A program made the position numbers and the translations under genes. The notes below the pieces were generated by a model. It ran no database searches and was not told where the DNA came from. It worked only from the letters and a program-made list of their open reading frames with translations. Below, one piece after another: positions 1 to 30,774 of a stretch of DNA of 30,774 nucleotides; position 1 is the first letter of the stretch; each line of letters begins with the position of its first letter. The stretch comes from a virus (taxonomy: Duplodnaviria; Heunggongvirae; Uroviricota; Caudoviricetes), in IMG/VR virus record IMGVR_UViG_2609459790_000004; one strand, written 5' to 3'.

Positions 1-981
1 TCACACCGCCAACCCGCCGCCGAGAGGGTTTAACGTTACTGCGTGTTGCAGGTAATCAGGTGCAAGGTGAGCATAAACCATCGTCTGTTGTATGCTGGCG
101 TGCCCCAGAATTTGCTGTAACGCAATAATGTTCCCCCCGTTCATCATGAACCAGCTTGCAAATGTATGCCGAAGCACATGCGTGGCCTGCCCGCGTGGTA
201 AATCGGGCTTAACCTGTCTGAGCCGTTCGCAGAAGTTTTCATAGTCAACTTTGAACAGTGGCCCGGTGTCGCTGGTCTTGATCTCTTTCTCCAGTTCTTC
301 CGATATGGGAACCGTGCGCTTTTTCCCATTTTTGGTCTTAAGGAACGTCACGCGCCCGTGATTAACCTGCTCACCGCGCAGCGTGCTGCCTTCACCCCAG
401 CGTGCGCCAGTGCTGAGGCATAGCAGTGCTACGCGTCGATCGTCGCCGGTCAGAGTGTCCAGTAATTTGCTGATCTCTGATTTGGCGAGATAGGTCATAG
501 ATGGGGGCGCTTCTTTCAGTGGTTCCAGACCCTTACAGGGGTTATCCTTCCTGAACTCTTCCAGCTTTATCAACGTGCTGAACATCCCGGACAAACGGTA
601 AATATCCCGATTGATCGTTGCTGCACTGATACTGTCTTCCAGCCTTTGGCTTCGGTGCTGTGCAATCATTCGCTTGTTCAGTCGGTTAACGGCTGGATCA
701 CCCAACGCCCTGATCGTTTTATTCAGGTGCCGTTTTTCAATCTCGCCATTTTCCTGAGTCTGTCCATACAGCAGCCACCAGGTATCTAACAACTCGCTTA
801 AGGTGCGGCGGTCAACGCTCGCGCCCAGCCATTCTTTTTTGTCGGCGTTGGCTAGTACATAACGCTCAAAAAGAACTGCCTCTTGTTTCTTCTCAAATCG
901 CCTGCGGATACGTTTTCCGTTACGTCCGCGCGGCCATACGTCCACTTCATATTGACCACCTTCGAGCTTCTTAATCGACAT
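1..981 (-). CDS. int: tyrosine integrase (P2 Int-like)
   Basis: 326-aa ORF, ATG at 981 with GGAGGG RBS; N-terminus MSIKKLEGGQYEVDVWPRGRNGKRIRRRF and C-terminal HxxRHT..Y catalytic region typical of P2-family integrases; stop codon is at window position 1-3. Confidence 0.9.
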   Translation of the reverse strand: MSIKKLEGGQYEVDVWPRGRNGKRIRRRFEKKQEAVLFERYVLANADKKEWLGASVDRRTLSELLDTWWLLYGQTQENGEIEKRHLNKTIRALGDPAVNRLNKRMIAQHRSQRLEDSISAATINRDIYRLSGMFSTLIKLEEFRKDNPCKGLEPLKEAPPSMTYLAKSEISKLLDTLTGDDRRVALLCLSTGARWGEGSTLRGEQVNHGRVTFLKTKNGKKRTVPISEELEKEIKTSDTGPLFKVDYENFCERLRQVKPDLPRGQATHVLRHTFASWFMMNGGNIIALQQILGHASIQQTMVYAHLAPDYLQHAVTLNPLGGGLAV

Positions 982-1050
982 AAGAAAGCCCTCCGGCGTT
1001 TATTTCCCCATCCTGATAACAGATAGTGAAAATGTAATGTTTATAAACAG

Positions 1051-1371
1051 TTAACCAGTTTGTTTCTCGGAGCGGTCTGATCCAGTTGACTCTGGCCCAA
1101 TGTGTGCGAGGGCCGGTGCGATTTGACCAGCTTGAGGGGCGGTCTTATCAGTCATAAGCCAGAGCGTGTATTTTGCGAAACGTGAATGCTGAGTGATCTT
1201 AAGCAAGATATCGCTACCAATACTCTCCACTCTTCCTGTCTCGTAATACTTCTGCGTGCCAGCAGGTATTCCAGTTAATTCAAAGAATTGCTGCCTTGTT
1301 AACCCCTCCGCATCCCTGATAGCTCTGATTTTTTCACCCACGCCGCTTGACGGGGTAGGGATCTCTACCAT
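1051..1371 (-). CDS. C: immunity repressor C (P2 C-like)
   Basis: Translation has TRQQ..LTG..YYE.GR and KYTLW..GQIAPALAH motifs shared with P2 C; ATG at 1371 has an AAGGAG RBS 6 nt upstream; track ORF extends to TTG 1410 and a second ATG lies at 1404. Confidence 0.8.
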   Translation of the reverse strand: MVEIPTPSSGVGEKIRAIRDAEGLTRQQFFELTGIPAGTQKYYETGRVESIGSDILLKITQHSRFAKYTLWLMTDKTAPQAGQIAPALAHIGPESTGSDRSEKQTG

Positions 1372-1404
1372 AACATTCTCCTTAAGGGTGGTAATCTCTA
1401 CCAT
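1347..1404 (+). promoter_or_regulatory. candidate early promoter Pe (TTGACG-N18-TAACAT, 1347-1376) overlapped by two 11-bp direct repeats ATCTCTACCAT (1361-1371 and 1394-1404), a candidate C operator
   Basis: Hexamers and repeats read directly from sequence; the face-to-face Pe/Pc layout with direct-repeat operators is known for P2-family immunity regions. Not experimentally anchored. Confidence 0.3.
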
Positions 1405-1471
1405 GAGCAACCGCCAATATAAGCAGTTACAAGCCGAAATAAGCGCCTAGCGCCGATGGGGATTATGACAC

Positions 1472-1753
1472 ATGACAGAGAAAGAGTTAGAGGGGTTCAT
1501 TGAAGTGCGTCACGCCGTTGACGCGGTTCCATACCCTAAATTTGCCGAGTTAATCGGTAAGAAGCCCGCCACGGTTAAGAGCATGATTGAAGACGGTAAG
1601 TTGCCGATCATCCCGTGGAAGAACCCGGACAGCCTGGGCGCCCGTGCTGAGAACTGGATCTATATTCCTGAGTTCAACCGCGCAATGCGTGACGCCTACT
1701 ACAACCGTCCGAGAGAGCAGCGCGACGCTTGGTTGCTGTGGATCGGTCTTTGA
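1472..1753 (+). CDS. cox: Cox-like excisionase / early transcriptional regulator
   Basis: 93-aa ORF divergent from C; FAELIGK..GKLP..W..P and DAWLLWIGL motifs resemble P2 Cox. Confidence 0.8.
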   Translation: MTEKELEGFIEVRHAVDAVPYPKFAELIGKKPATVKSMIEDGKLPIIPWKNPDSLGARAENWIYIPEFNRAMRDAYYNRPREQRDAWLLWIGL

Positions 1754-1763
1754 GGTTATCGCG

Positions 1764-1967
1764 ATGAGCCAGAAAACAGCCAACCACGAAAACCGGGTGC
1801 GTGAATGCAACGACATTCTGGACACCCATTTAAAAGATATGCAAACGGGCTTCATGATTCGCACCAATAGCGGCGAGTTTATGATCAGGGATAAAAAGCT
1901 GATTAAGAAAATAACCAAAGACGTGGCCCGCCATGTTGATGGTGAATTGCTTAAATTGGGAATGTGA
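1764..1967 (+). CDS. hypothetical early protein (67 aa)
   Basis: ATG at 1764 with GAGG RBS 8 nt upstream, immediately after cox stop; in frame with track ORF 1587..1967. Confidence 0.5.
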   Translation: MSQKTANHENRVRECNDILDTHLKDMQTGFMIRTNSGEFMIRDKKLIKKITKDVARHVDGELLKLGM

Positions 1968-1977
1968 GGGGGCTTTT

Positions 1978-2184
1978 GTGGCTGTGCAATTAATACAGTT
2001 AAGTCGTCATTCATATTTATATCGTGGCTTCACTATTCAGAAATGCCCGCGTAATCCTTTTACGTTTAAGCACTCTTATCGTATTTCCAGCAATGGCGAT
2101 TATTATGGGCGTGACTTTGCTTTAGCGGAAGCCATGCGCACGGTTGATCAGATGTATAAGCAAGGGGGCAGTAATGCACGATGA
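1978..2184 (+). CDS. hypothetical early protein (start uncertain: GTG 1978 with GAGGGGG RBS, or ATG 1933)
   Basis: Track ORF 1933..2184; stop overlaps start of next ORF (ATGcacgaTGA). Confidence 0.4.
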   Translation: MAVQLIQLSRHSYLYRGFTIQKCPRNPFTFKHSYRISSNGDYYGRDFALAEAMRTVDQMYKQGGSNAR

Positions 2185-2404
2185 AGGCCCATCACTGGCA
2201 AGCCTGCTTAAGCACGGGTGCCAGGTTACACACTTCAAAAACTCACGCGGCTGGCTGGAAACACCAGACGGAAGATTTTTTAAGCCCGAACCGGCGAAGG
2301 TTCAGTTTATCAAAGGTAAAAATAAACCATTTATTTATACCCAAAGAATAAATAAAGACTTCCTGCTTACACTGGCTGAATTATTTAAAAAGCTAATTAA
2401 GTAA
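2174..2404 (+). CDS. hypothetical early protein (76 aa)
   Basis: ATG 2174 with AGGGGG RBS; in frame with track ORF 2144..2404; AT-rich 3' half. Confidence 0.45.
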   Translation: MHDEGPSLASLLKHGCQVTHFKNSRGWLETPDGRFFKPEPAKVQFIKGKNKPFIYTQRINKDFLLTLAELFKKLIK

Positions 2405-2490
2405 TTCGGTTTTAAAAAATCAACTCTGTTTTCTCCGCCTCTTTATCAAGTGGCGGCGGTTCAACTCATTCTTTTTTTGAGGAAGAGATT

Positions 2491-2703
2491 ATGACCAGAC
2501 GTGATCAATATAGCTTCATTTTGCATGTTCTTTTACCTGCTATCGAAAATGAAGGCTTAACCATTAAAACCCGCCGTGATGGTGAGTTAACCCTTTCTGC
2601 CACTGGATCAGTAACCACAAATTTTATCAGCACCCTGCGCCAGCACTGCATTGAAGAATTGCAGCGCCCTTCTATTCCAGCTTCCCATTACGGAGTCCTG
2701 TAA
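2491..2703 (+). CDS. hypothetical early protein (70 aa)
   Basis: ATG 2491 preceded by GAGGAAG RBS; stop TAA 2701-2703 abuts the Dam start. Confidence 0.55.
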   Translation: MTRRDQYSFILHVLLPAIENEGLTIKTRRDGELTLSATGSVTTNFISTLRQHCIEELQRPSIPASHYGVL

Positions 2704-2704
2704 A

Positions 2705-3676
2705 ATGATCCGCCCGTTCATCAAATGGGCAGGGGGTAAAACCCGTGTCCTCCCTGACCTGCTGCCGCATCTTCCTAAAGCCGACTGCCTGATCGAACCG
2801 TTCGTAGGCGGCGCATCGGTATTTCTGGCGACTGAATACCGCCGCTATGTGCTGGCTGATATCAACCCGGATCTTATTAACCTGTATCGGGAAGTCACCC
2901 GTTACCCGGACTTAGTGATCGATGCGGCCCGCGAACTGTTCAACAGCAAGAATAGCCCGCAGGGGTACAACGAAGTCCGAGCCGCGTTCAATAAGCAGGT
3001 AGGTACGGTAAAAAGCGGTGGGTTGCGTTATGGCGTAGAAATGGCGTGCATCATGCGCGCTGCTCAATTCCTGTATCTGAATCGCCACGGTTATAACGGC
3101 TTATGCCGCTACAGTCGTAAGACCGGCTTTAACGTGCCGTTTGGCAAGTATAAGAGCGTCTACTTTCCTGAAAATGAAATCCGCCTGTTTGCAGAAAAGG
3201 CCAACAATACAAAGGCAATATTTCTTTGCGCGCCGTTCCAGCGTTCTCTACAGGTCGTCACGGGTGGCGATGTTCTCGTTTACTGCGATCCGCCTTACCT
3301 GCCTGAAGGCAAAACAGCCGATTTTACCAAATACCACACCGAACCATTCACGGAAGACAACCACCGCCAGTTAGTCCAGGCACTGCTGGAAGTTAACCGT
3401 AAGCATGGCGTGAAGGTCGTCATTTCCAACAGCGACACCGAAGCCACCCGCGCGATTTATCAGCCCTTCAAGATGCACGAAATCAGCGTGCAACGTTCCA
3501 TCAGCACCGACAAAGACAACCGCCAGAAGGCCAAAGAAGTGATCGGCGTGCTGCCTGTCTGCGACTGCTGCGGGCGTTACGGCGGCGGTTGCCCTGATTG
3601 TGGCGCCGTGATGGGTGATGCGACTTACAACGCGATGGTTGCGGCGGGCACGTCTGACGATCTGGAGGCTTTTTAA
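2705..3676 (+). CDS. dam: orphan DNA adenine (N6) methyltransferase, Dam family, with Cys-rich C-terminal tail
   Basis: FIKWAGGK, EPFVGGASVF, LYLNRHGYNGLCRY and DPPY motifs match the Dam family; preferred start ATG 2705 (RBS ACGGAG) rather than track start 2651, which overlaps the upstream ORF. Confidence 0.9.
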   Translation: MIRPFIKWAGGKTRVLPDLLPHLPKADCLIEPFVGGASVFLATEYRRYVLADINPDLINLYREVTRYPDLVIDAARELFNSKNSPQGYNEVRAAFNKQVGTVKSGGLRYGVEMACIMRAAQFLYLNRHGYNGLCRYSRKTGFNVPFGKYKSVYFPENEIRLFAEKANNTKAIFLCAPFQRSLQVVTGGDVLVYCDPPYLPEGKTADFTKYHTEPFTEDNHRQLVQALLEVNRKHGVKVVISNSDTEATRAIYQPFKMHEISVQRSISTDKDNRQKAKEVIGVLPVCDCCGRYGGGCPDCGAVMGDATYNAMVAAGTSDDLEAF

Positions 3677-3855
3677 TGAATCTTATAGACGCCTGGATCG
3701 TTGAAATCATAAGCGTGAGTCGTGGCGAGATTGCGCCGTATTGGTTGGTTGAGGCGAAAGTAACAGCTTATGGAAGGGAGTCAATAACCACAATTCTGAA
3801 GAAATCAGAAGAGGAAGCCAAAGCCGTTAAAGTAGGGGATGTAGTTCAAATATGA
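3676..3855 (+). CDS. hypothetical 59-aa protein translationally coupled between dam and A
   Basis: Hand translation MNLIDAWIVEIISVSRGEIAPYWLVEAKVTAYGRESITTILKKSEEEAKAVKVGDVVQI; start overlaps Dam stop (TAATG), stop overlaps A start (ATGA); GGAGGC RBS. Below the 60-aa cutoff of the ORF track. Confidence 0.5.
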   Translation: MNLIDAWIVEIISVSRGEIAPYWLVEAKVTAYGRESITTILKKSEEEAKAVKVGDVVQI

Positions 3856-6209
3856 CCACGGAAACCCGTGGCCGTCGCGCCCCTTCTCCACCTCCACCGT
3901 ATCCGGGTAGCACTGACAATGCTATCCCTTACGCTTATGGGGGAAACAGACCATACCAGCCTATTGGCTTTGATGTAGCGCCGGGGCTGGATGGTTTCGA
4001 CTATCTCACGCCGGACGGCACGCGTAAGCATATTGCGTTCAGTGAACTGGTAGCGGAAGACGAAAAGCCGGAGCGCAGCAAGCTGCTGCGTCGCCGTCTG
4101 GCTTCACTTCCGCAGTATATCCGCCGCCACTTTGCCGCGAAGCTGGATGCACTGGAAGCGAAAGACCGCAAAGCGGCAGATCACTGGCTGGTTAATACCT
4201 TTGAGCGCCACGTATTAACGCGAATTGATAGCGTGAACAGTGTTTACCAGCCTGACACTATGATGCCCGGCATTCTGCTGCCAATCCGCGATCAGCTGTT
4301 CCGTATGCTCTGGGCAGGGAAGAAAGAGTTAAAAAGACTGGCTTATACGCTTGCCGATATCTTTACGAGCGAGTTTATACGCGAGTCCGATCACCAATTG
4401 GCACGCACCGGAGATCCTGAGTTCGCGGCGCTTTCTGGCTATGGCCGTATTGCGTCGCTGGCGGTGCATCTGAAAACGCCGATCCCCGGCTGGAGGGCGT
4501 ATTGCAATGAAGAACTGGAAGCGGAGGACGCGTTACGCGCGGTTCTTCGCCTTGAGTCACCGCAGTGGTGGTTAAACCGCCTGCGCCGTATCCATGCCCG
4601 GTGGCGTGAGCATTTGATGATCGCAGCGGGATACGTCCAGAAAAAATCTTCCCCATACAGTAGCGCCCCGTGCCTTACGGAATGGCTGGCCCAGAAAAAG
4701 GCTAACCGTGAATACCTCAAGGCTATGGAACTGGAAGATCAGGATACGGGCGAGCGCATTTCACTGATCGATAAAGTCGCTGGCAGTGTTGCCAATCCGG
4801 CCAACCGTCGCCGCGAACTCATGACGAGAATGCGCGGATTTGAAGATCTGGCGAAGCTGGAAGGGCTGGCCGGTGACTTCTACACGCTGACAGCACCTTC
4901 CCGTTACCACTCCATGCAGCATAACGGGCGCCGCAATAATAAATACTGTGGCGCGTCGCCGCGCGAGACGCAGCAATATCTTTGCAAAGTCTGGGCAAGA
5001 ACCCGCGCAGCGTGGAAGAGAAAAGGGATCCGCGTCTTTGGTTTCCGAGTGGTCGAACCGCACCACGATGCAACGCCACACTGGCATTTACTTCTTTTTA
5101 TGCGCCCCGAATGCGTCGAACAGGCGCGCGAAATCTTCCGTAAATATGCCCTGAAAGAAGACGGCAACGAACCGGGAGCGCAGGAAAACCGCTTTCAGGT
5201 TGTGCCGATCGACGATGCCCACGGCAGCGCAACCGGCTACATAGCGAAATACATTTCGAAGAATATCGACGGCTTCGCGCTGGATGGTGAGAAGGACGAC
5301 GAAACCGGGGAAGACCTGAAAGAAATGTCACTCCGCGTTAGCGCGTGGGCATCGCGCTGGGCTATTCGCCAGTTTCAGCAGATCGGCGGTGCGCCGGTCA
5401 CGGTATATCGGGAACTTCGCCGCCTGGGCGATCGCGAACTGGTGTTACACCCTGAACTGGAAACCGCCCGGCAGGCCGCTAACGGTGGCGAATGGGATAA
5501 CTACGTATTAGCCCAGGGTGGCCCGTTGGTTGAGCGCGATAAGCTGCGCATCCGTCTGAACTATGAAACCACTGAAAACGGTAACGCCTACGGCGATAAC
5601 GTCCAGCGAATCACTGGTATTTACTGCCCGATTACGGGCAATGACTCTTTGATCTTCACCCGCACCACTCAATACAAAATCGTGCCGAAGCGCCAGAGCG
5701 CTGACGGTGTGGCCGTTGACGTTGGTTTTTCAGGCGGCAACGCCGCCCCTCGGAGTTCTGTCAATAACTGTACGCGGGATCCCGCGACAGGTGCAGACGG
5801 TCTTGAACATGCCGATCACGAAGTGGGCGAGACGGTGAATTTTGATGCGCTTTCACGGCAGGAAAAGCGAGAACTGGCGCAGCGGCTTAGTGACGATGTG
5901 CGAAGTAAGCGTAAAAAACAGCCATCGGAACGGGAAGAGAGGGCCGGGCTATCCGTGAAAGAGCAGCAGATCAGTGAACTGCTGGCGCTGCGTGGGATTG
6001 ATGCCAGCGCCGGAATAGTCAGATCGATGATGGCTGGTGCGTCAGTGGCGTGCGGCGATCTTGTTATGACCGTACAAAATGGGCGGCTGGTATCGCGCAA
6101 CCGTGCAGCGTCGGGGCTGGATAAGCTGCCGTCGCAGGTAATGGCTGCGAAGAAAAAGACCAGTGACCTCGTGAACAGGATGAAGGCTGCGTTTTCGGGA
6201 CGGAAGTAG
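3852..6209 (+). CDS. A: rolling-circle replication initiation endonuclease (P2 gpA-like)
   Basis: 785-aa ORF with HWH..L and YIAKYISK motifs typical of P2 A-family initiators; position after the early operon. Confidence 0.9.
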   Translation: MTTETRGRRAPSPPPPYPGSTDNAIPYAYGGNRPYQPIGFDVAPGLDGFDYLTPDGTRKHIAFSELVAEDEKPERSKLLRRRLASLPQYIRRHFAAKLDALEAKDRKAADHWLVNTFERHVLTRIDSVNSVYQPDTMMPGILLPIRDQLFRMLWAGKKELKRLAYTLADIFTSEFIRESDHQLARTGDPEFAALSGYGRIASLAVHLKTPIPGWRAYCNEELEAEDALRAVLRLESPQWWLNRLRRIHARWREHLMIAAGYVQKKSSPYSSAPCLTEWLAQKKANREYLKAMELEDQDTGERISLIDKVAGSVANPANRRRELMTRMRGFEDLAKLEGLAGDFYTLTAPSRYHSMQHNGRRNNKYCGASPRETQQYLCKVWARTRAAWKRKGIRVFGFRVVEPHHDATPHWHLLLFMRPECVEQAREIFRKYALKEDGNEPGAQENRFQVVPIDDAHGSATGYIAKYISKNIDGFALDGEKDDETGEDLKEMSLRVSAWASRWAIRQFQQIGGAPVTVYRELRRLGDRELVLHPELETARQAANGGEWDNYVLAQGGPLVERDKLRIRLNYETTENGNAYGDNVQRITGIYCPITGNDSLIFTRTTQYKIVPKRQSADGVAVDVGFSGGNAAPRSSVNNCTRDPATGADGLEHADHEVGETVNFDALSRQEKRELAQRLSDDVRSKRKKQPSEREERAGLSVKEQQISELLALRGIDASAGIVRSMMAGASVACGDLVMTVQNGRLVSRNRAASGLDKLPSQVMAAKKKTSDLVNRMKAAFSGRK

Positions 6210-6261
6210 GGCGCCGATCGTCTATATTCTGATCGTCGATTAAACCAACGAGGTGATAGAT

Positions 6262-6516
6262 ATGGCAATTGAAGGACAACTCACAATGGAAGCCAGAAAA
6301 GCCCGGCCAGAAGCTAGCGTGCGATTTGAAAGGAACGGGCAGATTTTAACGATGTTCTGGGATTGGGAATATAAGGGCCAAAAGCTGAGTTACAGCAGGG
6401 CGGAACTGCGCCAGGACTATGAAAAAGATCCAGAAATGGTTGGGGCGGTTGTCGATTTTTGTGTGATCCAAATGGGTATTTTGGAAAAAGGAATTGACGA
6501 CGCCGCGCCGCGTTGA
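6262..6516 (+). CDS. hypothetical small protein (84 aa) between A and cos
   Basis: ATG 6262 with AGGTGA RBS; soluble, no recognisable motif; occupies the position of the P2 orf91/tin/old accessory locus. Confidence 0.5.
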   Translation: MAIEGQLTMEARKARPEASVRFERNGQILTMFWDWEYKGQKLSYSRAELRQDYEKDPEMVGAVVDFCVIQMGILEKGIDDAAPR

Positions 6517-6644
6517 AAATCAGTGCAAAATTTCGCGCAAAACCGCACAAATTTTATGATGGTGATTTTTCAGGAGCAGACCAGACGGGGCGGGCCTTCA
6601 GCTGGTCTGCACATTTGCACAAAAACGCGGGGTTTCTGCGTGCG

Positions 6645-6663
6645 GGCGAGGCGGGGGAATGAG
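6645..6663. other. candidate cos (cohesive end) site
   Basis: GGCGAGGCGGGGGAATGAG resembles the P2 cos cohesive-end sequence recalled from memory (GGCGAGGCGGGGAAAGCAC); lies in a GC-rich non-coding stretch between A-side genes and Q, as in P2. Confidence 0.5.
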
Positions 6664-6774
6664 CGCGCGCTGAGGGGTGGGATAGGGTCGGTATTATCTG
6701 CGCCGATTTTCGCGCCGTTGCGCCTCGCTGCTGCGTCGTTTTCGGTTCGCCGTGGTGGTTTGAGGCAAAAGAAA

Positions 6775-6792
6775 AGCCCATGCCAGCGGGCT
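6775..6792 (-). terminator. candidate intrinsic terminator for the leftward P-Q operon
   Basis: 5-bp stem AGCCC/GGGCT with 8-nt loop; on the minus strand it is followed by a U-rich run (CUUUUCUUUUG); ~80 nt downstream of Q stop. Confidence 0.35.
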
Positions 6793-6873
6793 GCTGAGGG
6801 GCTTATGTGCGGTGTGGTCAGTTGCGGCCGTGCTGGCCGCTCCACGGTGGTGGTGGGTGTGTCTGGGCTGGCG

Positions 6874-7923
6874 TCAGATCGCTGCCTGCAATAGTGCGTA
6901 AGGGTTGAAGCGCACCACGTCGATCCCCAGCCAGTCGTTTAACTCTTTCAGGCTTTCTTGTATCGGGGCCAGTTCGTTGATGGAAAACACCTTCGCCGCT
7001 TTCTCTACGTCGCCGAAGCCACCGGAGTTATTAGGCATTACCCCCATCAGAACGGGCGGCACACGGTGCGCGGCTAGCAGGTCGTCGCGGGTGGCGTCTT
7101 TGATGCCGGTAAACTCATCCTTCGCCGCCACCTGGCTGAACGGCATAATTTGCAGGCCGTCTTTTTTCCCGCCCGCCGCGTAGACAAACAGGTTTTTAAA
7201 AGCACCGTTGCCGCGTGCATCTTTCAGCGACTTCTTAAGCTTTTCCACATCGTTATTATTCGCTACCGGGTCAGTGAGGTAGACGATCACCCCCGCATGA
7301 CTGCCGTTAATGTAGTAGTTGCGGCGAAATACCGTTGCTTCACCGTTCAGCATGGCGCTTTGTAGCGCGGCCAGATATTCCGGCGCGCCGTAGATCTCCT
7401 GGTGCGGGCTGGGGTTCTTGATCTGGCAGACGCTGCCTGGTTCGAACGCGTGATCGTCAACGTAGCGCGGAACAAACCAGAATTGCGCCGGGTCTATGCC
7501 GCGCCGCGTATATTTTGCCTGGCTGTGCCGCAGCTCGATCGGCTGGCCGAGTCGGTTGCGGCGGCATTCCATGTAACAGTTACCGAAAATTAAATAATCC
7601 TGCACCCAGGCGGTGAACTCCTGCCGGGTCAATAGCGGGTGTGGTATGTAGCAACTGGCGATAACATTGCGTTTAAATATCAGCGGTGACTGGTGATAGG
7701 CGGCAACGTCGAACATGCGTGCAAGCCCGTAGGGGCTGATCGGTGGTTCATACCAGCGGCCATTGTTATGGCATTCGAGGCACTCCATAAGAGACGCGCG
7801 ATCGTTGACTGCGATCGGGTCGCCAAAGCTGAAAGATTCCACGCTTTCCAGCGGGGTGGCTGCGTTGCTGGCCGTGCTGGCTGGCGCAGCAGTTGGCGCC
7901 CTGAATTTCTTTTTGCCGCTCAA
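6874..7923 (-). CDS. Q: portal protein (P2 gpQ-like)
   Basis: 349-aa ORF adjacent to terminase; length and position match P2 Q; apparent TTG start immediately after P stop with GGAGGA RBS inside P. Confidence 0.85.
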   Translation of the reverse strand: MSGKKKFRAPTAAPASTASNAATPLESVESFSFGDPIAVNDRASLMECLECHNNGRWYEPPISPYGLARMFDVAAYHQSPLIFKRNVIASCYIPHPLLTRQEFTAWVQDYLIFGNCYMECRRNRLGQPIELRHSQAKYTRRGIDPAQFWFVPRYVDDHAFEPGSVCQIKNPSPHQEIYGAPEYLAALQSAMLNGEATVFRRNYYINGSHAGVIVYLTDPVANNNDVEKLKKSLKDARGNGAFKNLFVYAAGGKKDGLQIMPFSQVAAKDEFTGIKDATRDDLLAAHRVPPVLMGVMPNNSGGFGDVEKAAKVFSINELAPIQESLKELNDWLGIDVVRFNPYALLQAAI

Positions 7924-9636
7924 TTAAAACTCCTCCACAAAACTGCCGTTATCGCCGGTCACTTCCGCGCCGATCGGTTCGTTGTAAATGCCCTGCATAG
8001 TTGCCCATGCCAGATCGCCGTGATTGCTGCCACGGGCGCGATCGGACTGGTAGGTAATAACGCCGCCAGCGGTGACTTTACGCACGGTCATAAACGACTG
8101 TGCGAGATCCATCATTCCGGCGTCGAACTCAAAGCGCCCGGCGCGAATGACCATCAACATTTTGAGCACCATCGACCGCTTAAGAACCGGTGAATAGTTG
8201 TATTTAACCGCCTGCGGGAAGAACTTGATCACCAGTTGATAAACCGCATCGCCGATCCCCGTGCCGTCGATAGCAATGTGCTGCACGTTGTAGCGGGTGG
8301 TGATCTCTTTAATAAAATTGGCCTGCTCTTCGTACTCCATGCCGCGTAACTGGTGGCGCTCTACCGCGCGGAACTTACCACCCGGCACGGCTGGCGGGGC
8401 CAGCACAACCAGCCCGGCGCTGTCGCCTTTGCCGCTGCTGCCGTTGGGGTCATAGCTAACCCAGACAGGGCGATTACCCAGCGGGCGGGGTGCAAACGGG
8501 TTCCAGTCCGGCCAAGCGTCCGGCATGTAGCCATCAACGCCGCAGCCCAGAATTGCGTTGTAGTCGAAGGCGCGTTCCCCGGCTTTAACGAACATGCAGC
8601 CGTACAGGTTGGCGTATTCGTCGGGGGAGTTTTCGTTACGGATTTCATCGGTATCAACCAGATCGAAGCCGAGCTTCACGGCGTCTTCCAGCGTGACTAT
8701 CTGGCGCCAGATGTTATCCCCGCATAGCTTGCCGTTTTTCAGTGCCTTATAACTGGTGTCGATATCCACCCGATCGGAGCGGCGGCGGTTTTTATTGAAC
8801 TGATCGCCAGTCCAGAAAGGATAGGCTTCATGTTCTTCACTGGAAGGCGTCGAAAAGTAGGTGCGGCGCAGTCCTTTTTGTGTCGCCATGCCTGCGGCCA
8901 CTGAGCGCAGTTTGATGAAATTACTGATCCAGAAGGCTTCATCAAGGTACAGATCGCCGGTGTAGCTCTGGGCCGTCGCGGAGGAGGTGCCGAGAAAATA
9001 CAGGATCGCACCGTTGCTTAACTCAATGGCATCACCGCCCTTAAGTTCTACTCCTATTTCCCTTGCCAGCTTCTGAATGAACCTCTTGAACTGGAACGCC
9101 TGGGCGCGGCTGGCTGACAGGAATATCTGATTATTTCCGGTTTCCAGCGCACGCAACAGCGCTTCGCGGGCAAAGTACCAGGTGGCACCAATCTGGCGCG
9201 ATTTGAGTATAAAGCGGTTACGCCGGTTCCACTGTTTGAACCAGCGTTTTTGATGCTCGTATAGCGAATCAAAGACCAGGGCGCGAAGCTGGGTTATCTG
9301 TTCTTCGGTGAAATGGTTTTTCGGGGTCTTCGCCTTCTTCTCTTTCTCCTGGTCGCGTCGCTCATGCCGTTCAAAGCGGTCAAGCTGGCGCGCCAGCAGG
9401 TCAATTTCTTTGAAGTCCTTCGGGGTTTTGTCGTCCTTTTCCACCAGGCGCAGGTAACGAACGTGTGTGCGATCCTGCACCCGCTGCATGGGGGTGGCTT
9501 TATCCCATTCGTAGCGGCGGCGCCAACTGTAGATCGTGTTAATGCTCACCCCGATTTCCTTAGAAATCTGAGTGATGCTAAACGCCTGCCAGTAGAGGCT
9601 TTTGGCTTTTGTGCTGAGGTCTTCGGCTGTATTCAT
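7924..9636 (-). CDS. P: terminase large subunit (P2 gpP-like)
   Basis: 570-aa ORF; N-terminal helix-turn-helix region, Walker A-like ILKSRQIGAT and C-terminal nuclease region; ATG at 9636. Confidence 0.95.
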   Translation of the reverse strand: MNTAEDLSTKAKSLYWQAFSITQISKEIGVSINTIYSWRRRYEWDKATPMQRVQDRTHVRYLRLVEKDDKTPKDFKEIDLLARQLDRFERHERRDQEKEKKAKTPKNHFTEEQITQLRALVFDSLYEHQKRWFKQWNRRNRFILKSRQIGATWYFAREALLRALETGNNQIFLSASRAQAFQFKRFIQKLAREIGVELKGGDAIELSNGAILYFLGTSSATAQSYTGDLYLDEAFWISNFIKLRSVAAGMATQKGLRRTYFSTPSSEEHEAYPFWTGDQFNKNRRRSDRVDIDTSYKALKNGKLCGDNIWRQIVTLEDAVKLGFDLVDTDEIRNENSPDEYANLYGCMFVKAGERAFDYNAILGCGVDGYMPDAWPDWNPFAPRPLGNRPVWVSYDPNGSSGKGDSAGLVVLAPPAVPGGKFRAVERHQLRGMEYEEQANFIKEITTRYNVQHIAIDGTGIGDAVYQLVIKFFPQAVKYNYSPVLKRSMVLKMLMVIRAGRFEFDAGMMDLAQSFMTVRKVTAGGVITYQSDRARGSNHGDLAWATMQGIYNEPIGAEVTGDNGSFVEEF

Positions 9637-20023: not shown

Positions 20024-20220
20024 TGAGTAATTATGCGATAGTTAAAAATGGCGTCGTTGAAAATGTTGTTGTATGGGACGGGATTGGTAATATTTTCGAC
20101 AATTATATAGTGGTAAATATTGAAAATATAAATGCAGGAATAGGCTGGTTGTATGACGGAGAGGCTTTTACCCCTCCGTCTGAGCTTACGCCTACACCAC
20201 CGGGAAATCAGGCCAGTTAA
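20023..20220 (+). CDS. small hypothetical protein (65 aa) downstream of H in the expressed orientation; possible tail-fibre chaperone
   Basis: ATG overlapping H stop (TAATG); AT-rich; function inferred only from position. Confidence 0.45.
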   Translation: MSNYAIVKNGVVENVVVWDGIGNIFDNYIVVNIENINAGIGWLYDGEAFTPPSELTPTPPGNQAS

Positions 20221-20599
20221 TATCTGGCGCAGTGCTGGTATCAATTACCTGCACTGCGTCGATATAGTCCAGCACTGCGTTTAACCGCGTAGTTTCTGCA
20301 TCAGTCAGCATACGCCCTGCCAGCAATTTCATTTGCAGCACACTAATTGACTGCATTGCTGAATCTATCAGCGACTGTTTTTTCTGCTCGCCTCTCGCAA
20401 CTTCTTCTTCACGCGTCAAACCGATGGGCTCTTGCAATACCGGGTGACCATCATTTCCAGCGGAAATTATTTTTCCATTGGCCTGACCGTCAAACAGCCG
20501 GTGATATTCATCTGAGCTAATTTCTATAGCGTTATCTGGAATGTGGTTATTTAATCCGTCAATATAAAATGCACCATCTAAAAAATAATATTTCATCAT
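20192..20599 (-). CDS. tail fibre assembly protein (Tfa/gpG/Mu U-like), alternative-orientation copy
   Basis: N-terminus MMKYYFLDGAFY and C-terminus ..DAVQVIDTSTAPDINWPDFPVV match the conserved tail-fibre-assembly family ends; ATG overlaps the stop of the alternative fibre segment. Confidence 0.8.
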   Translation of the reverse strand: MMKYYFLDGAFYIDGLNNHIPDNAIEISSDEYHRLFDGQANGKIISAGNDGHPVLQEPIGLTREEEVARGEQKKQSLIDSAMQSISVLQMKLLAGRMLTDAETTRLNAVLDYIDAVQVIDTSTAPDINWPDFPVV

Positions 20600-20982
20600 T
20601 TACCCCACGCGAATACGATGCATCCTGCATTTTCTACTGCTGAAATTTGTGATCCGTTATCTACCCTGCATATTGCCTGAACGCCTGTTTTAGTGAGCGT
20701 ACTCAGTTGTATTGCCCATGTATTGGAAATTCCTGCACCCCAGGCATACGGATTACGCTCTATCACAACAGCGCCCAGGCCGAAAACATCAAAACTGGCA
20801 GGAAAAACAACGTCCGCAGCACCGCCAGAATTTGTATTCCCCAGTACCCACATGATTTTAAAACCCCCAGGGAATCGCGCCACACCGGGCATGTTTAGTG
20901 TTGATGCAAAACTGGACATATCAGGAATCTGATTTGCGCCGGTGCCGACGTTGCGGCGCGACGCTGTACCCAGATCTCCCAA
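20596..20982 (-). CDS. alternative tail-fibre C-terminal segment (silent in this orientation; fuses to H constant part after inversion)
   Basis: No ATG of its own (track start is TTG within the right hix site); after inversion at the 2-bp cores the H frame reads ..QNLGLGD-LGTASRRNVG.. continuously into this ORF. Confidence 0.7.
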   Translation of the reverse strand: MGDLGTASRRNVGTGANQIPDMSSFASTLNMPGVARFPGGFKIMWVLGNTNSGGAADVVFPASFDVFGLGAVVIERNPYAWGAGISNTWAIQLSTLTKTGVQAICRVDNGSQISAVENAGCIVFAWGK

Positions 20983-20999
20983 ACCAACGTTTTTGAAAA
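20974..20999. promoter_or_regulatory. hix/gix/cix-like 26-bp recombination site (right)
   Basis: ATCTCCCAAACC AA CGTTTTTGAAAA; inverted repeat of the left site; strong match to the hix consensus as recalled. Confidence 0.6.
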
Positions 21000-21053
21000 T
21001 GCATAATTATCAGTCAAATGGCATGATTTCTCATTTTAACGGAATGAAAAACC

Positions 21054-21635
21054 ATGCTTATTGGATATGTACGCGTATCAACAAATGACCAGAACACGGC
21101 TTTGCAACGTGATGCGCTGGAGCGGTCAGGATGTGAGCTTATTTTTGAAGATAAAATGAGCGGTAAAACAGCAGAAAGACCGGGGCTTAAAAAATTACTA
21201 AAGCGCCTTTCTCCAGAAGATACGCTTGTTGTCTGGAAGCTGGATCGTCTTGGGCGGAGTATGCGGAACTTGGTCATTCTGGTGGAGGAACTAAAGCAAC
21301 GTTCCGTGAACTTCCGCAGCCTGACTGACAGTATTGATACCTCAACACCAATGGGGCGTTTCTTTTTTCATGTTATGGGAGCACTGGCAGAGATGGAGAG
21401 AGAATTGATTGTCGAGCGTACGCGTGCAGGACTGGTGGCCGCTCGCGCGCAGGGAAGGATCGGCGGTAGACGTCCAAAACTAACACCAGAACAATGGGCG
21501 CAGGCGGGTAGGTTAATAGCGGCAGGGGAATCGCGCCGGAGGGTTGCCATAATTTATGATGTTGGGATATCTACGCTTTACAAAAAATTCCCAGCGACCA
21601 GAGATAAGAATTCCGGCACGCATGGCCGGTTATAA
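21054..21635 (+). CDS. serine recombinase, Hin/Gin/Cin/Pin-family DNA invertase
   Basis: 193-aa ORF; GYVRVSTNDQ (catalytic Ser region), TLVVWKLDRLGRS, MGRFFFHVMGALAEMERELIVERT and C-terminal HTH are near-identical in pattern to Hin/Gin. Confidence 0.95.
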   Translation: MLIGYVRVSTNDQNTALQRDALERSGCELIFEDKMSGKTAERPGLKKLLKRLSPEDTLVVWKLDRLGRSMRNLVILVEELKQRSVNFRSLTDSIDTSTPMGRFFFHVMGALAEMERELIVERTRAGLVAARAQGRIGGRRPKLTPEQWAQAGRLIAAGESRRRVAIIYDVGISTLYKKFPATRDKNSGTHGRL

Positions 21636-28936: not shown

Positions 28937-29584
28937 TTATTTCATGTTTATGGCTACAAACCTTGATCGTGTAAGGTTTTCACTTAAATATTGATCGCCA
29001 CTATCCCCGGCCTTTTTGCCCCAGATATCACACGAAGATTCACCGCCCTGAAAAACGTAGCCTTTGGTTAAAATGTCGTTAGTCACATAAATATGATCGA
29101 ATAAACCAGCCTTCCAAGCCCTGTTAGATTCCCCGTGATTGAAATAGCTGATGCATACGGACTGAACGGCACTTTTCGCCTGTAGTTCTTCTATGCTGTC
29201 AAAATTGAATGCAACTACTAAGGCTTTGTTGTAAATGACTGGTTTAACTGTGAGATTCAGATCTCCGAGCGCCTTGGATAAGGCAAGGGGAAGTTGATTA
29301 GTCGCTTCTGAAAAGTCGATAGTGGTTGTTAATTGTTCTTTGGGTTTAGCCGCGGGTTGTGTTTGTTCTGTGTTTGTCACTGCTGGCTGGGGTTTATTTT
29401 CAGCAACAGCTTTCGGCGCGACTGGTGCAACCATTGAACCTATGATTGCTGCCAAGAGGCACACCCCGAAGTAGATAGCAGATGAGCGCTTTCGATTTGG
29501 CATAAAAACCCATTTGGGATTGATTAGCCCAACCCAAAAAGCGATCCCAGCAACAGCGGCGATAACGGTGATGATTGTTTCCAT
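28937..29584 (-). CDS. hypothetical membrane protein (two N-terminal TM helices, Pro/Gln-rich linker, ~150-aa C-terminal domain with two Cys); prophage-end cargo
   Basis: 215-aa ORF, ATG 29584 with GGAGGG RBS; AT-rich relative to surrounding phage genes; no recognisable family. Confidence 0.6.
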   Translation of the reverse strand: METIITVIAAVAGIAFWVGLINPKWVFMPNRKRSSAIYFGVCLLAAIIGSMVAPVAPKAVAENKPQPAVTNTEQTQPAAKPKEQLTTTIDFSEATNQLPLALSKALGDLNLTVKPVIYNKALVVAFNFDSIEELQAKSAVQSVCISYFNHGESNRAWKAGLFDHIYVTNDILTKGYVFQGGESSCDIWGKKAGDSGDQYLSENLTRSRFVAINMK

Positions 29585-29762
29585 TGAGTACCCTCCGTAT
29601 TAAGGCGGGTATTATTGTCGATGGTGCTCAAAAACGGAACAGCCAAGCGCGGTGCGCCTGGCTGCTTCTTTGTCGAAGTGTAGTCAAAATGTAGACGAAG
29701 TTTAGAATAAATCCTTTTATTCCATTATGTTACTGGCTGGATTTCTTCACCATCCCTGTCTT

Positions 29763-29790
29763 CCCCCCCCTGCTGTGGGGGGTTTTTTTT
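29763..29790 (+). terminator. intrinsic terminator upstream of fieF (C8-loop-G6 stem followed by T8)
   Basis: CCCCCCCC TGCTGT GGGGGG TTTTTTTT read directly from sequence; position matches where a cpxP/CpxQ-type terminator would lie if the host flank is cpxP-fieF. Confidence 0.6.
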
Positions 29791-29871
29791 ATCCTCAATT
29801 TGCCTGCTGCTTAATGCATTGCAGATGATTTGCTTCCGTTATACTAGCGTCAGTTGATAGCGGGAGTATTT

Positions 29872-30774
29872 ATGAATCAATCTTATGGACGGCTGGTCAG
29901 TCGGGCGGCGATTGCTGCGACGGCGATGGCTTCGCTGCTATTGCTGATTAAAATTTTTGCATGGTGGTATACCGGGTCGGTGAGTATTCTCGCCGCGCTG
30001 GTGGATTCGCTGGTGGATATCGGCGCGTCGTTGACGAATTTATTGGTGGTGCGATATTCCCTGCAACCTGCCGACGATAATCACTCGTTTGGTCACGGTA
30101 AAGCTGAGTCCCTCGCGGCGCTGGCGCAAAGTATGTTTATCTCCGGTTCGGCACTATTCCTGTTTTTGACGGGTATTCAACATCTGATATCTCCAACACC
30201 GATGACAGATCCAGGCGTCGGGGTTATCGTGACAATTGTGGCGCTAATTTGTACGATTATCCTTGTCTCGTTTCAGCGTTGGGTGGTGCGGCGGACGCAA
30301 AGCCAGGCGGTGCGGGCTGATATGCTACATTACCAGTCTGATGTTATGATGAACGGCGCAATTCTGCTGGCGCTGGGGTTGTCCTGGTACGGCTGGCATC
30401 GCGCCGATGCTCTGTTTGCATTGGGAATCGGCATCTATATTTTATATAGCGCGTTACGCATGGGATATGAGGCGGTACAGTCATTACTGGATCGCGCATT
30501 GCCTGATGAGGAACGGCAAGAAATTATTGATATCGTGACTTCCTGGCCGGGTGTTAGCGGCGCTCACGATCTTCGCACGCGGCAGTCAGGGCCGACCCGC
30601 TTTATTCAGATTCATTTGGAAATGGAAGACTCTCTGCCTTTGGTTCAGGCACATATGGTGGCGGATCAGGTAGAGCAGGCTATTTTACGGCGTTTTCCGG
30701 GATCGGATGTAATTATCCATCAGGACCCCTGTTCCGTCGTACCCAGGGAGGGTAAACGGTCTATGCTTTCATAA
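29872..30774 (+). CDS. fieF: cation diffusion facilitator family ferrous-iron/zinc efflux transporter FieF (YiiP)
   Basis: Translation from ATG 29872 ([49 protein letters not shown]...) matches enterobacterial FieF as I recall it; track ORF begins at an upstream TTG 29854. Confidence 0.95.

Follow-up and report, generated by a model that had tools for sequence, protein, structure and literature searches.

An orphan Dam-family methyltransferase with a cysteine-rich C-terminal extension and a small downstream gene in the early operon of a P2-like prophage

The window, meaning the whole 30,774-nucleotide stretch of DNA analysed here, is a P2-like (Peduoviridae) prophage. It carries a Dam-family methyltransferase gene (dam) whose product ends in a 41-residue tail outside the enzyme fold, and a 59-codon ORF between dam and gene A. 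Our preferred reading, to which we give a probability of about 0.6, is that dam encodes an active, GATC-specific, stand-alone methylase of a P2/186-like early (lytic) operon, that the tail would be a docking module and that the small ORF would be an accessory gene. As a gene call dam is ordinary, because phage Dams are familiar and this one is already annotated in a near-identical phage. What is new here is a module of about 30 residues with four cysteines, found on three DNA enzymes and several small early proteins.

The Dam enzyme and its prophage setting

The genes follow the order integrase, CI-like repressor, Cox-like gene, Fil, Dam and A, and the remainder of the 30.8-kb window holds structural genes, an invertase and a host-type gene. 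dam is placed in the rightward early operon, with the Cox-like gene and A on either side of it and the CI-like repressor opposite. The features of the dam region that are needed first are as follows.

2491..2703, + strand: early-operon ORF of 70 aa (ORF list; phrog_21140, E 4.6e-41; "hypothetical" in phiT5282H and SEN5)
2692..2695, + strand: Shine-Dalgarno sequence GGAG of dam, read from the sequence, 9 nt 5' of the ATG
2705..3676, + strand: orphan Dam-family N6-adenine DNA methyltransferase, 323 aa (PF02086, TIGR00571 and 2G1P matches)
3008..3049, + strand: insertion of about 14 residues (approximately 102-115) relative to E. coli Dam (gap in the 2G1P alignment)
3852..6209, + strand: gene A, rolling-circle replication initiator, 785 aa (PF05840, E 1.5e-105), its ATG overlapping the TGA of the small ORF

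A count over 5426 complete E. coli genomes found the element as a resident prophage in 37, and many other Enterobacterales carry it as well. The Enterobacter phage phiT5282H (NC_049429) shares 97% DNA identity with the window over 2400-4000, and the 70-aa ORF, dam (gp17), the 59-aa ORF and A stand there in identical order. dam is likewise already annotated in RefSeq E. coli genomes. In E. coli 0H26, the sole RefSeq genome inspected, PGAP splits the intact gene into two pseudogene pieces.

The stop codon of the 70-aa ORF lies at 2701-2703 and is separated by 1 nt from the Dam ATG at 2705; the Dam frame closes with TAA at 3674-3676. A TTG at 2651 was considered as the start and rejected, because MIRPFIKW is the N-terminus of the homologues and the ATG at 2705 has a GGAG ahead of it. 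PF02086 matched Dam residues 8-266 over the whole profile (1-253 of 253; E 8.6e-63; 212.8 bits against a cut-off of 22), and TIGR00571 scored 272.3 bits against a curated cut-off of 114.85. The protein thus matches the profiles of the D12-class (alpha group) Dam family over their full length and above their curated cut-offs. Against the host-type equivalog NF008152 (PRK10904) it reached 279.3 bits, under the cut-off of 441. The window Dam is a member of the family, not the housekeeping orthologue.

E. coli Dam (2G1P) matched the window Dam with an E value of 8e-71 and 49.6% identity over 262 aligned residues. The SAM-binding motif I (FxGxG) is present as EPFVGGASVF at residues 31-40, and the catalytic motif IV is D195-P-P-Y198, aligned with D181-P-P-Y184 of E. 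coli Dam. K9, Y119, N120, L122, R124 and P134, which we take to be the GATC-contacting residues in the structures of E. coli Dam with DNA, are all identical in the alignment (6/6); N126 of E. coli Dam is Ser in the window Dam. Judged from its sequence, the protein would methylate GATC. The insertion of about 14 residues sits in a loop of the helical target-recognition region, and the AF2 pLDDT is below 50 at residues 103-107. GATC occurs 209 times in the 30.8-kb window, about once per 147 bp (observed/expected 1.18), and is its most over-represented 4-base palindrome. No GATC clusters hinting at a packaging or origin role were seen in the window.

The preliminary description of this DNA had called the gene a Dam methylase without a restriction partner. 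Both parts of this claim hold: the PF02086 and TIGR00571 matches place it in the family, and no restriction endonuclease partner was found among the genes of the 30.8-kb prophage. dam is adjoined by the 70-aa ORF, the 59-aa ORF and A, so the arrangement is not that of a Type II restriction-modification system. E. coli Dam (2G1P/4GOL/4RTJ) is alike in belonging to the PF02086/TIGR00571 fold family and in having no partner nuclease. It differs in that it lacks the insertion and ends in 11 unrelated residues instead of the 41-residue tail, whereas the window Dam is the product of a phage early-operon gene. T4 Dam (1Q0S/1YFJ, 259 aa) is only distantly similar (E 1e-14) and tailless. The Dams of P1, HP1 and Stx phages are also phage orphan GATC methylases without a nuclease. 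Phage-borne orphan GATC methylases are generally seen as anti-restriction or replication/packaging helpers, and the orphan methylases of mobile elements have been described as anti-restriction devices (PMC12707154). A literature search found no experimental studies of the Dams of phiT5282H, SEN4/SEN5 or SI7/SW3/SW5.

The C-terminal tail and its relatives

The Dam tail comprises residues 283-323. E. coli Dam can be aligned with the window Dam only up to residue 282 of the latter, which pairs with residue 267 of 278, and this leaves about 30 of the 41 residues of the tail as a true extension. In the AF2 model, pLDDT is above 90 for the core and 36-65 for the tail (50-65 at the putative knuckle), and the tail is not docked on the core; its modelled fold is of low confidence. 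These results agree with the earlier proposal that the tail lies outside the Dam core. It is a separate module of three pieces: the knuckle CxxC-x6/7-CxxC comes first, the short helix GDATYxxM follows, and an acidic tip with a final Phe closes it.

3560..3601, + strand: Cys4 knuckle C286-x2-C289-x6-C296-P-D-C299, putative Zn site (conserved Cys columns)
3614..3646, + strand: segment GDATYNAMVAA, predicted short helix (AF2 helix 305-314, low confidence)
3653..3673, + strand: acidic C-terminal tip SDDLEAF (family consensus FD[DG]xE[AGV]F-COOH; position table of 49 tails)

The preliminary description had named the presence of the extension in ordinary Dam homologues as something that would refute it. 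E. coli Dam, T4 Dam and DpnM all lack the extension, yet among the closest prophage Dams (best 113) about 70% have it, so this refuting condition holds by half. The tail type of the window Dam is shared by SI7 and a Klebsiella element. The SEN4/SEN5 Dams differ: their Cys-rich tail is longer and ends with PSDNPETW, and a cytosine methylase replaces the small ORF.

CDCCGRYGGGCPDCG corresponds to Dam residues 286-300 (3560-3604). In 60 homologues with 53-75% identity, and likewise in 25 tails, C286, C289, C296 and C299 either never vary or are kept in at least 90%, while the third Cys, C288, is unconserved. The four conserved cysteines fit the metal-binding knuckle that had been suggested for this string; the metal would probably be zinc. 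The G, T, Y and M of GDATYNAMVAA are nearly invariant across tails. In the last 28 Dam codons, pN/pS was about 0.2-0.35 with pS up to 0.84; by this measure the tail is under purifying selection. An antisense ORF of 69 codons (3501-3710) was considered as the selected frame and rejected, on the pN/pS of the Dam frame and the synonymous changes relative to recE.

When the tail profile was run against the PDB, the module itself was not among the structures, and the only matches were weak ones to generic C4 zinc ribbons (2LCQ, E 0.04; 9QTR, E 0.022). No domain family of Pfam or NCBIfam matched the tail, the lone match being to the interior of the exonuclease VIII equivalog, and a protein search with the 47-residue tail alone had no matches. 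Altogether we found no Pfam family, solved structure or paper describing the tail, and the literature on P2-like Dam, phiT5282H, RecE and zinc, full-length RecE and SSB-tail mimicry gave no description of it. A beta-clamp-binding motif in YNAMV/YQEMF was also considered and dropped, since the spacing misfits QL[SD]LF, the motif of beta-clamp binders.

The exonuclease VIII match corresponds to positions 527-553 of the NCBIfam model. In a tblastn search with the tail against phages, RecE of lambdoid phages was matched, and Dam-linked tail copies were found in P2-like phages only. The tail profile search gave 46 representatives, including RecE, DnaQ-like fusions and proteins of 80-190 aa, and the Pfam partners of the module were Exonuc_VIII, Rv2179c-like, DUF3799 and MethyltransfD12. 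At least 528 IMG/VR contigs carry the module; the best 80 matches comprised 32 Dam, 41 DnaQ-like and 7 RecE-type proteins. The module also stands at the C-terminus of small phage proteins with unrelated N-terminal domains. The knuckle is thus not peculiar to Dam but is also part of RecE, DnaQ-like exonucleases and small phage early proteins. From this distribution, the knuckle and helix together are a mobile module of temperate phages of Gammaproteobacteria.

In RecE of the Rac prophage and its relatives, the module reads VCxxCGxxGGGxCPDCGAVMGDATY (80% identity over 24 residues), lies at residues of about 527-553 and is followed by an acidic stretch. The module itself has nearly no basic residues, and acidic sequence follows it in both Dam and RecE. 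Unlike in Dam, the module of RecE is internal, with the Exonuc_VIII N-terminal domain before it and the PD-(D/E)XK nuclease after it, and has no FDDxExF tip. Over CPDCGAVMGDATY, the amino acids of the window Dam and Rac-SA53 RecE are identical, and 7 of the 13 codons differ synonymously; for this reason we rejected the idea that the common motif passed between dam and recE in a recent transfer of DNA. The carriers thus include the N-terminal region of RecE, a workhorse of recombineering. The function of the RecE N-terminal domain was stated to be unknown in a 2023 review (PMC11611040), and nuclease-less 'RecE-2' proteins were noted as unexplained (PMC12315714).

The acidic tip was tabulated in 49 distinct tails. 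Phe stands at -7 in 35 of them, Asp at -6 in 31 (Asp or Glu in 35), Glu at -3 in 43 and Phe at -1 in 43, and Pro is found at -2 in just 4. In the window copy, S317 replaces the conserved Phe at -7, and no other of the 49 tails has Ser there. The AF2 pLDDT of residues 317-323 is below 50, and SDDLEAF-COOH fits the description of a disordered acidic end with a hydrophobic last residue. Of 104 long tails, 51 have Phe as the last residue, and the last residue is F, L, W, I or M in 74. The same succession of acidic and then hydrophobic residues closes unrelated tail classes (WESEENPIPL, FVDEDAF and PSDNPETW).

The C-terminal tip of E. coli SSB, on which SSB-interacting proteins dock, is MDFDDDIPF (PMC7913777; the tip is also covered in PMC5872125). 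Counted from the free C-terminus, the Dam-tail consensus G-A-F-D-[DG]-x-E-[AGV]-F-COOH agrees with it in F(-7), D(-6), D(-5) and the terminal Phe, and a second Dam tail class ends with EENPIPL, comparable to DDDIPF of SSB. The two differ at -4 to -2 (D-I-P in SSB versus x-E-A), the window copy has its Ser at -7, and the SSB tip is on an OB-fold protein whereas the Dam tip is on an enzyme. The resemblance of the Dam tip to the SSB docking tip covers 4 of 7 positions and was noticed post hoc. The Shine-Dalgarno sequence of the gene that follows falls on the codon of the tip Glu and would by itself suffice to conserve this residue. The knuckle and the tip may differ in job, since the module of RecE and the DnaQ-like proteins is internal and has no tip.

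The 59-codon ORF between dam and A

3664..3668, + strand: Shine-Dalgarno sequence GGAGG of the small ORF, in Dam codons L320-E321-A322, 7 nt before its ATG
3676..3855, + strand: small protein gene of 59 aa (phrog_8110 family, E 4.1e-13; homologues)

The ATG of the small ORF uses the last A of the Dam stop codon (TAATG), and its TGA and the start codon of gene A (ATG at 3852-3854) overlap as ATGA. The preliminary description had reported both overlaps, and they are indeed present together with a Shine-Dalgarno sequence, as coupling requires. The junctions recur in relatives: GGAG or GGAGG counterparts exist in SI7 and the Klebsiella element, and the junction CAAATATGACCACGG to gene A is conserved in loci L008-L011, although gene callers picked a later start in L009-L011. 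This arrangement suggests that the translation of Dam, the small ORF and A would be coupled.

Conservation of the small ORF, which had been named as a check on it, was found at the protein level. Its match to phrog_8110 is full-length (residues 1-56 cover positions 1-56 of the 59-position profile), and 26 loci hold 18 distinct sequences of constant size and position. There are two subfamilies, 44% identical; the 57-aa subfamily keeps this identity over the full length (E 3e-15), together with the hydrophobic pattern and both ends. In the database, the small ORF forms 16 clusters at 88-98% identity. Among close copies, pN/pS was 0.4-0.6, a value based on 8-14 substitutions. AF2, working from a shallow alignment, gave a compact model (pLDDT 74.6) built of three strands and short helices. 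Fold searches with this model in BFVD and PDB found nothing below E 0.04, and a Pfam scan of the 59-aa protein found no family.

The slot between dam and A is highly variable. The small ORF is absent in some loci, and the same type of junction at the Dam end precedes the 59-aa ORF, a 101-aa ORF (L019) or a 67-aa ORF (L041). In several loci the small ORF lies away from A and hence must be more than a leader of A. The earlier picture of Dam, the small ORF and A as a fixed unit thus gives way to one in which the slot varies and the small ORF may or may not fill it. On this comparative evidence, the 59-codon ORF is a genuine small accessory gene in a swappable slot. It had also been called unannotated, which the raw window cannot tell; the nearest records do annotate it, as a hypothetical protein, in phiT5282H (gp18) and in RefSeq E. 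coli (WP_016246746).

Proposed roles and alternative explanations

In the mechanism that we propose, Dam would be co-produced with the replication initiator A and would keep the phage DNA fully methylated while phage replication outpaces the scarce host Dam. Full methylation would shield exported DNA against GATC-cutting restriction and limit the hemimethylated state, which is the target of MutH and SeqA. Anti-restriction, or the tuning of replication or packaging, is a plausible role of Dam; since hosts already carry a Dam, what a second enzyme would add is argued here rather than observed. The tail would serve as a zinc-stabilised docking handle for a partner common to Dam, RecE, the DnaQ-like exonucleases and the small early proteins. 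Because the tip AFDDxExF-COOH resembles DFDDDIPF-COOH of SSB, Dam may dock on an SSB-tail-binding protein, and the tip would then bring the methylase to or near the replication fork. Zinc binding, docking and the identity of the partner are what we infer for the tail. Ribosomes finishing Dam would read the 59-codon ORF, whose termination overlaps the start codon of A.

If a common partner exists, it would explain why full-length RecE behaves unlike its nuclease domain, and it would show a phage targeting a methylase to its own replicating DNA. A bolder idea, which we regard as speculative and rather unlikely, is that the knuckle-helix and the SSB-like tip form an address tag that plugs phage DNA enzymes into one host replication-fork hub. 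The users would be temperate phages of Dam-containing Gammaproteobacteria, the enzymes would be Dam, RecE and the DnaQ-like exonucleases, and candidates for the hub would be readers of the SSB C-terminal tail such as chi-psi, PriA and ExoI. If such a tag is real, Dam would be tethered to the fork, closing the hemimethylation window on phage DNA, and the N-terminal part of RecE would gain its first assignable function.

The tail could instead be a nucleic-acid-binding zinc knuckle that gives an extra grip on DNA (for example single-stranded or nascent DNA) and increases processivity, with no protein docking. Many zinc knuckles bind nucleic acid, all identified enzyme partners of the module act on DNA (Dam, the PD-(D/E)XK RecE and the DnaQ-like exonucleases), and the CxxC-x6/7-CxxC pattern, together with its conserved aromatic residue, is compatible with a small zinc ribbon or knuckle. 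However, a module almost without basic residues and with an acidic flank in Dam and RecE is unusual for DNA binding, and the module also ends small proteins with unrelated N-terminal domains. We therefore consider this explanation a doubtful one. That the tail has no function and is the joint of a cassette exchange, kept for the ribosome-binding site and overlapping start of the next gene, is very improbable. The GGAGG at 3664-3668 and the TAATG overlap do fall within the last Dam codons, and the junction is common to different next genes in a variable slot (59 aa, 101 aa in L019 and 67 aa in L041), but this explains at most the last 3-4 codons. The amino acids of the knuckle and helix are conserved despite near-saturated synonymous change, the module also occurs inside RecE and other proteins where there is no gene junction, and the Klebsiella element retains the tail though its next annotated gene begins 265 nt past the Dam stop.

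Two further explanations concern the use of dam and the reality of the small gene. Dam might be a moron-like methylase that serves the lysogen by altering host GATC methylation and expression, not by acting on lytic phage DNA. The element is a resident of 37/5426 complete E. coli genomes and of many Enterobacterales, and prophage methylases that alter the host phenotype have reportedly been described in other bacteria. Against this, dam is in the early operon opposite the CI-like repressor, and the early operon of P2/186-type phages is repressed in lysogens. A promoter/terminator scan of 900-6900 gave counts no higher than shuffled controls, which shows no separate promoter above chance and is uninformative on internal signals. 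An extra GATC methylase would also add little in a lysogen, because hosts already carry Dam; we hold a lysogen role to be improbable. The accessory-gene reading of the 59-codon ORF has its own rival, in which the ORF is no gene at all but a ribosome-positioning spacer for A or a chance frame. This is consistent with the clusters all being at least 88% identical (16 clusters), with a pN/pS of merely 0.4-0.6 on few changes, with the lack of a Pfam family or significant fold match, and with a slot that may be without the ORF. It is nevertheless hardly credible, given a 57-aa subfamily 44% identical from end to end (E 3e-15), 18 distinct sequences in 26 loci with constant size and position, the phrog_8110 match (E 4e-13), a strong Shine-Dalgarno sequence, a compact AF2 fold (pLDDT 74.6) and several loci in which the ORF and A are not adjacent.

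Dam and the rightward early operon

The window comprises a complete P2/186-like prophage, and when read from the sequence, the coordinates and strings in the preliminary description proved exact.

Features around dam
1-981, minus strand: integrase, at the left end
1051-1410, minus strand: CI-like repressor, after the integrase
1472-1753, rightward early operon: Cox-like gene, followed by small ORFs
2144-2404, rightward early operon: Fil-family gene (PF10893)
2491-2703, rightward early operon: 70-codon ORF, stop codon 2701-2703
2692-2695: GGAG preceding the Dam ATG at 2705
2705-3676, rightward early operon: dam
3676-3855, rightward early operon: 59-codon ORF
3852-6209, rightward early operon: replication initiator A (PF05840)

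The Dam product matched PF02086 end to end (E 8.6e-63) and passed TIGR00571 (272 bits versus a cut-off of 115); it did not pass the housekeeping-Dam equivalog NF008152 (279 versus 441). The closest solved structures were those of E. coli Dam (EcoDam; E 8e-71), whose residues 5-267 of 278 were aligned to query residues 3-282 with 49.6% identity over 262 positions. Compared with EcoDam, the phage protein has about 14 extra residues (about 102-115), which were modelled at low confidence. EcoDam K9, Y119, N120, L122, R124, P134 and D181-P-P-Y184, whose roles come from EcoDam-DNA structures, are all kept in the alignment, and this conservation leads us to expect GATC-specific methylation. No nuclease gene accompanying Dam was found in the gene and profile survey of the window, so the earlier label 'orphan' is right.

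This kind of Dam is already known and is annotated in a near-identical phage. The Enterobacter phage phiT5282H (Peduoviridae, Novemvirus) is 97% identical over window region 2400-4000, and its record already annotates dam, the small ORF (gp18, hypothetical) and A in the same order. Among 5426 complete E. coli genomes, 37 carry the 2400-4000 segment.

GATC is not avoided: 209 sites were observed in 30,774 bases versus 178 expected from trinucleotide composition, the highest observed/expected ratio of all sixteen palindromes of 4 bases, and across the whole window GATC formed no conspicuous local cluster. CTAG was strongly avoided over the same length (9 observed versus 25 expected).

The best-supported reading is that the protein would be an active orphan GATC methylase, produced early in lytic growth along with A and maintaining methylation of the GATC-dense phage genome. 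On the basis of established Dam biology and a review (PMC12707154), the benefit would be anti-restriction and escape from the action of MutH and SeqA on hemimethylated DNA. Overall, the observation in the preliminary description was confirmed, and its interpretation was partly supported.

The C-terminal tail of Dam

The alignment to EcoDam ends at Dam residue 282, after which 41 residues follow in Dam and 11 in EcoDam, confirming the Cys-rich extension. That the extension is foreign to ordinary Dam was borne out in part: it is absent from EcoDam, T4 Dam, DpnM and a few relatives of 277-295 aa, but a CxxC...CxxC tail occurs in about 70% of the closest homologues (113 parsable among the best 120 in the database, mainly Enterobacterales prophage proteins of 305-335 aa). 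Among 60 homologues (53-75% identity), C289, G294, C296 and D298 are invariant, and C286, G290, G293, G295, P297, C299, G300 and G304 are at least 90% conserved. C288 is not conserved in this alignment, and the cysteine pattern therefore gives a predicted metal-binding set of C286-x2-C289-x6(7)-C296-x2-C299. Comparing the last 28 Dam codons with diverged loci gave pS of 0.5-0.84 and pN of 0.13-0.22. In AlphaFold2 models, which contained no metal ions, the core had high confidence and the tail was undocked (pLDDT 36-65), with a single short helix at 305-314. The tail is a separate module under selection, typical of Dam's clade.

In E. coli 0H26 (NZ_CP081782; locus 1501-2472), PGAP annotated an intact 323-codon Dam frame as two pseudogene pieces, one labelled 'missing C-terminus' and the other 'missing N- and C-terminus', probably an artefact of the protein-evidence alignment breaking near the tail. 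The entry 'DNA adenine methylase (x2)' in about 10 of 12 listed RefSeq E. coli records may reflect the same split.

The knuckle is not peculiar to Dam but is a mobile module. Tail residues 285-310 matched the interior of three 'exonuclease' families in the PHROG scan, and Pfam scans returned no family for the motif. Compared with phage genomes by tblastn, the tail matched RecE (exodeoxyribonuclease VIII) from lambdoid phages, Rac-like ones among them, with 80% identity over 24 residues. Further matches were an Aeromonas phage protein and a nuclease-less RecE-like protein adjoining gam-bet-exo. The NCBIfam RecE model has the motif at 527-553 of 877. The stretch CPDCGAVMGDATY has the same amino acids in Dam and Rac-SA53 RecE while 7 of 13 codons differ synonymously, which rules out recent DNA exchange as the source of the likeness and indicates that protein-level selection keeps it. 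A profile from 25 tails, run against 1.84 billion representative proteins, gave 46 matches, among them RecE with a PD-(D/E)XK domain, a DnaQ/Rv2179c-like exonuclease joined to the RecE N-terminus, and many 80-190-aa proteins with the module at or near the C-terminus. In IMG/VR the module is encoded on at least 528 contigs, of which the best 80 comprised 32 Dam, 41 DnaQ-like and 7 RecE-type proteins. Each examined locus carries one copy.

Nuclease-less RecE-2 proteins were listed as unexplained in a 2025 paper (PMC12315714), and no description of the knuckle motif was found in the literature. Dam with this tail is an undescribed architectural variant, and the module ties it to RecE's unexplained half. 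The 690-aa 'exodeoxyribonuclease VIII' of phage PhiR5_2 (2318-4390 of its locus) combines the RecE N-terminal domain with the knuckle but lacks a nuclease domain, lies directly 5' of gam-bet-exo and ends in a hydrophobic segment; its kin among the representative proteins, P0148 and P0149, terminate in the acidic ...DDEHMPDF with a final Phe. In one locus (L009, 1087-1242) dam is directly preceded by a 51-aa piece of an Rv2179c-like 3'-5' exonuclease, and the dam operon of a Klebsiella element has a full 185-aa copy, so these exonucleases, whose family carries the module elsewhere, travel in Dam's operon.

As for function, the main rival reading takes the tail as a DNA-binding knuckle. The module has almost no basic residues, sits on enzymes of differing chemistry and on small proteins, and is found at C-termini or within acidic, disordered linkers; together these features suggest a docking handle.

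The acidic tip bears on a possible docking partner. Phe is the final residue in 51 of 104 long Dam tails, and F, L, W, I or M in 74. Acidic-then-hydrophobic ends recur in unrelated tail classes (...AFDDLEAF, ...WESEENPIPL, ...FVDEDAF, ...PSDNPETW, ...GEEPF). The last nine positions of 49 distinct canonical-length tails read G-A-F-D-[DG]-x-E-[AGV]-F, with F at -7 (35 tails), D at -6 (31), E at -3 (43) and F at -1 (43). In E. coli, many genome-maintenance proteins dock on the SSB tip, MDFDDDIPF (PMC7913777; PMC5872125). Counted from the free C-terminus, the Dam consensus agrees with it at F, D, D and the final F, and a second tail class ends in IPL where SSB has IPF. This likeness is a resemblance, noticed post hoc, and the tip Glu codon is also part of the next gene's Shine-Dalgarno sequence. 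Our most specific guess, a rather doubtful one, would be a partner protein that reads SSB-type tails. The window copy alone among the 49 has Ser at -7 (Ser317, TCT, 3653-3655) where 35 have Phe (TTT); one T-to-C change thus separates the two codons at the position where the tip is most like SSB.

The 59-codon ORF and the dam-A slot

The overlaps described earlier are present: the final A of the Dam stop (3674-3676) doubles as the first base of the small ORF ATG (TAATG), and the small ORF TGA (3853-3855) overlaps the A start (3852-3854) in ATGA. GGAGG (3664-3668) lies within Dam codons L-E-A, 7 nt 5' of the small ORF ATG. The purine-rich AGGGGA belonging to A (3834-3839) is 12 nt distant from its start, so A translation may depend on ribosomes coming from the small ORF. 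The junction sequences also occur in relatives, including L009-L011, where automatic calls put the A start further downstream.

A word-indexed search with the small ORF gave 16 clusters, each with 88% identity or more, including one present on 439 contigs; pN/pS among close copies was 0.4-0.6, a weak value on 8-14 changes. The support that we regard as decisive for a gene comes from diverged loci. A Klebsiella P2-like element encodes a 57-aa homologue with 44% identity over the full length (E 3e-15), and repeated rounds of searching through the collected loci found 18 distinct sequences at 26 loci in two subfamilies, confirming conservation at the protein level. The ORF matches phrog_8110 (E 4e-13), and its AF2 model (pLDDT 74.6) has three antiparallel strands followed by short helices, for which the fold search gave no match reaching E 0.04. 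The diverged homologues, the phrog_8110 match and the model indicate that it is a real small protein gene.

The small ORF does not always accompany Dam and A. Where present, it is always 3' of Dam in the 26 loci, mostly directly after it and in several with a spacer of about 220-260 nt. The dam-A slot holds the small ORF alone in 14 loci, a cytosine methylase in 8 and both in 4; elsewhere it holds a 101-aa ORF starting at the same TAATG (L019) or other genes.

The slot is a cassette-exchange hot spot in P2-like phages, with inserts comprising cytosine methylases, the 101-aa ORF (MAKIYIAGPMSG...), 67- and 75-aa ORFs and the 59-aa family (L019 3675-3980; L041 4084-4595; L002 4806-5795; L006 3644-4791; L007 3909-5240). 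At the junctions read in L006, L019, L041 and the 59-aa loci, the insert start codon overlaps the Dam stop.

Remainder of the prophage

The rest of the window carries genes for portal, terminase, capsid and tail proteins, tail-fibre segments accompanied by a DNA invertase and, at its right edge, a cation-efflux gene of host type. Between A and the portal gene (6210-6870) there is just one 87-aa ORF (6253-6516), with no PHROG match. At the corresponding side of A, phiT5282H (7462-8600 of its locus) has an AAA ATPase and an S8 peptidase, possibly defence cargo. The invertase gene (21054-21635, phrog_125) adjoins segments for tail fibre and tail-fibre assembly in the opposite orientation (20192-20982, minus), and this arrangement (20192-21635) suggests a Gin/Cin-type host-range switch. 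The right end (28937-30774) holds a 215-aa ORF (phrog_3403/3807) with no function assigned and the cation-efflux gene (phrog_7308), which extends past the edge and is probably host flank or a moron, placing the prophage boundary near 28.7-29.8 kb.
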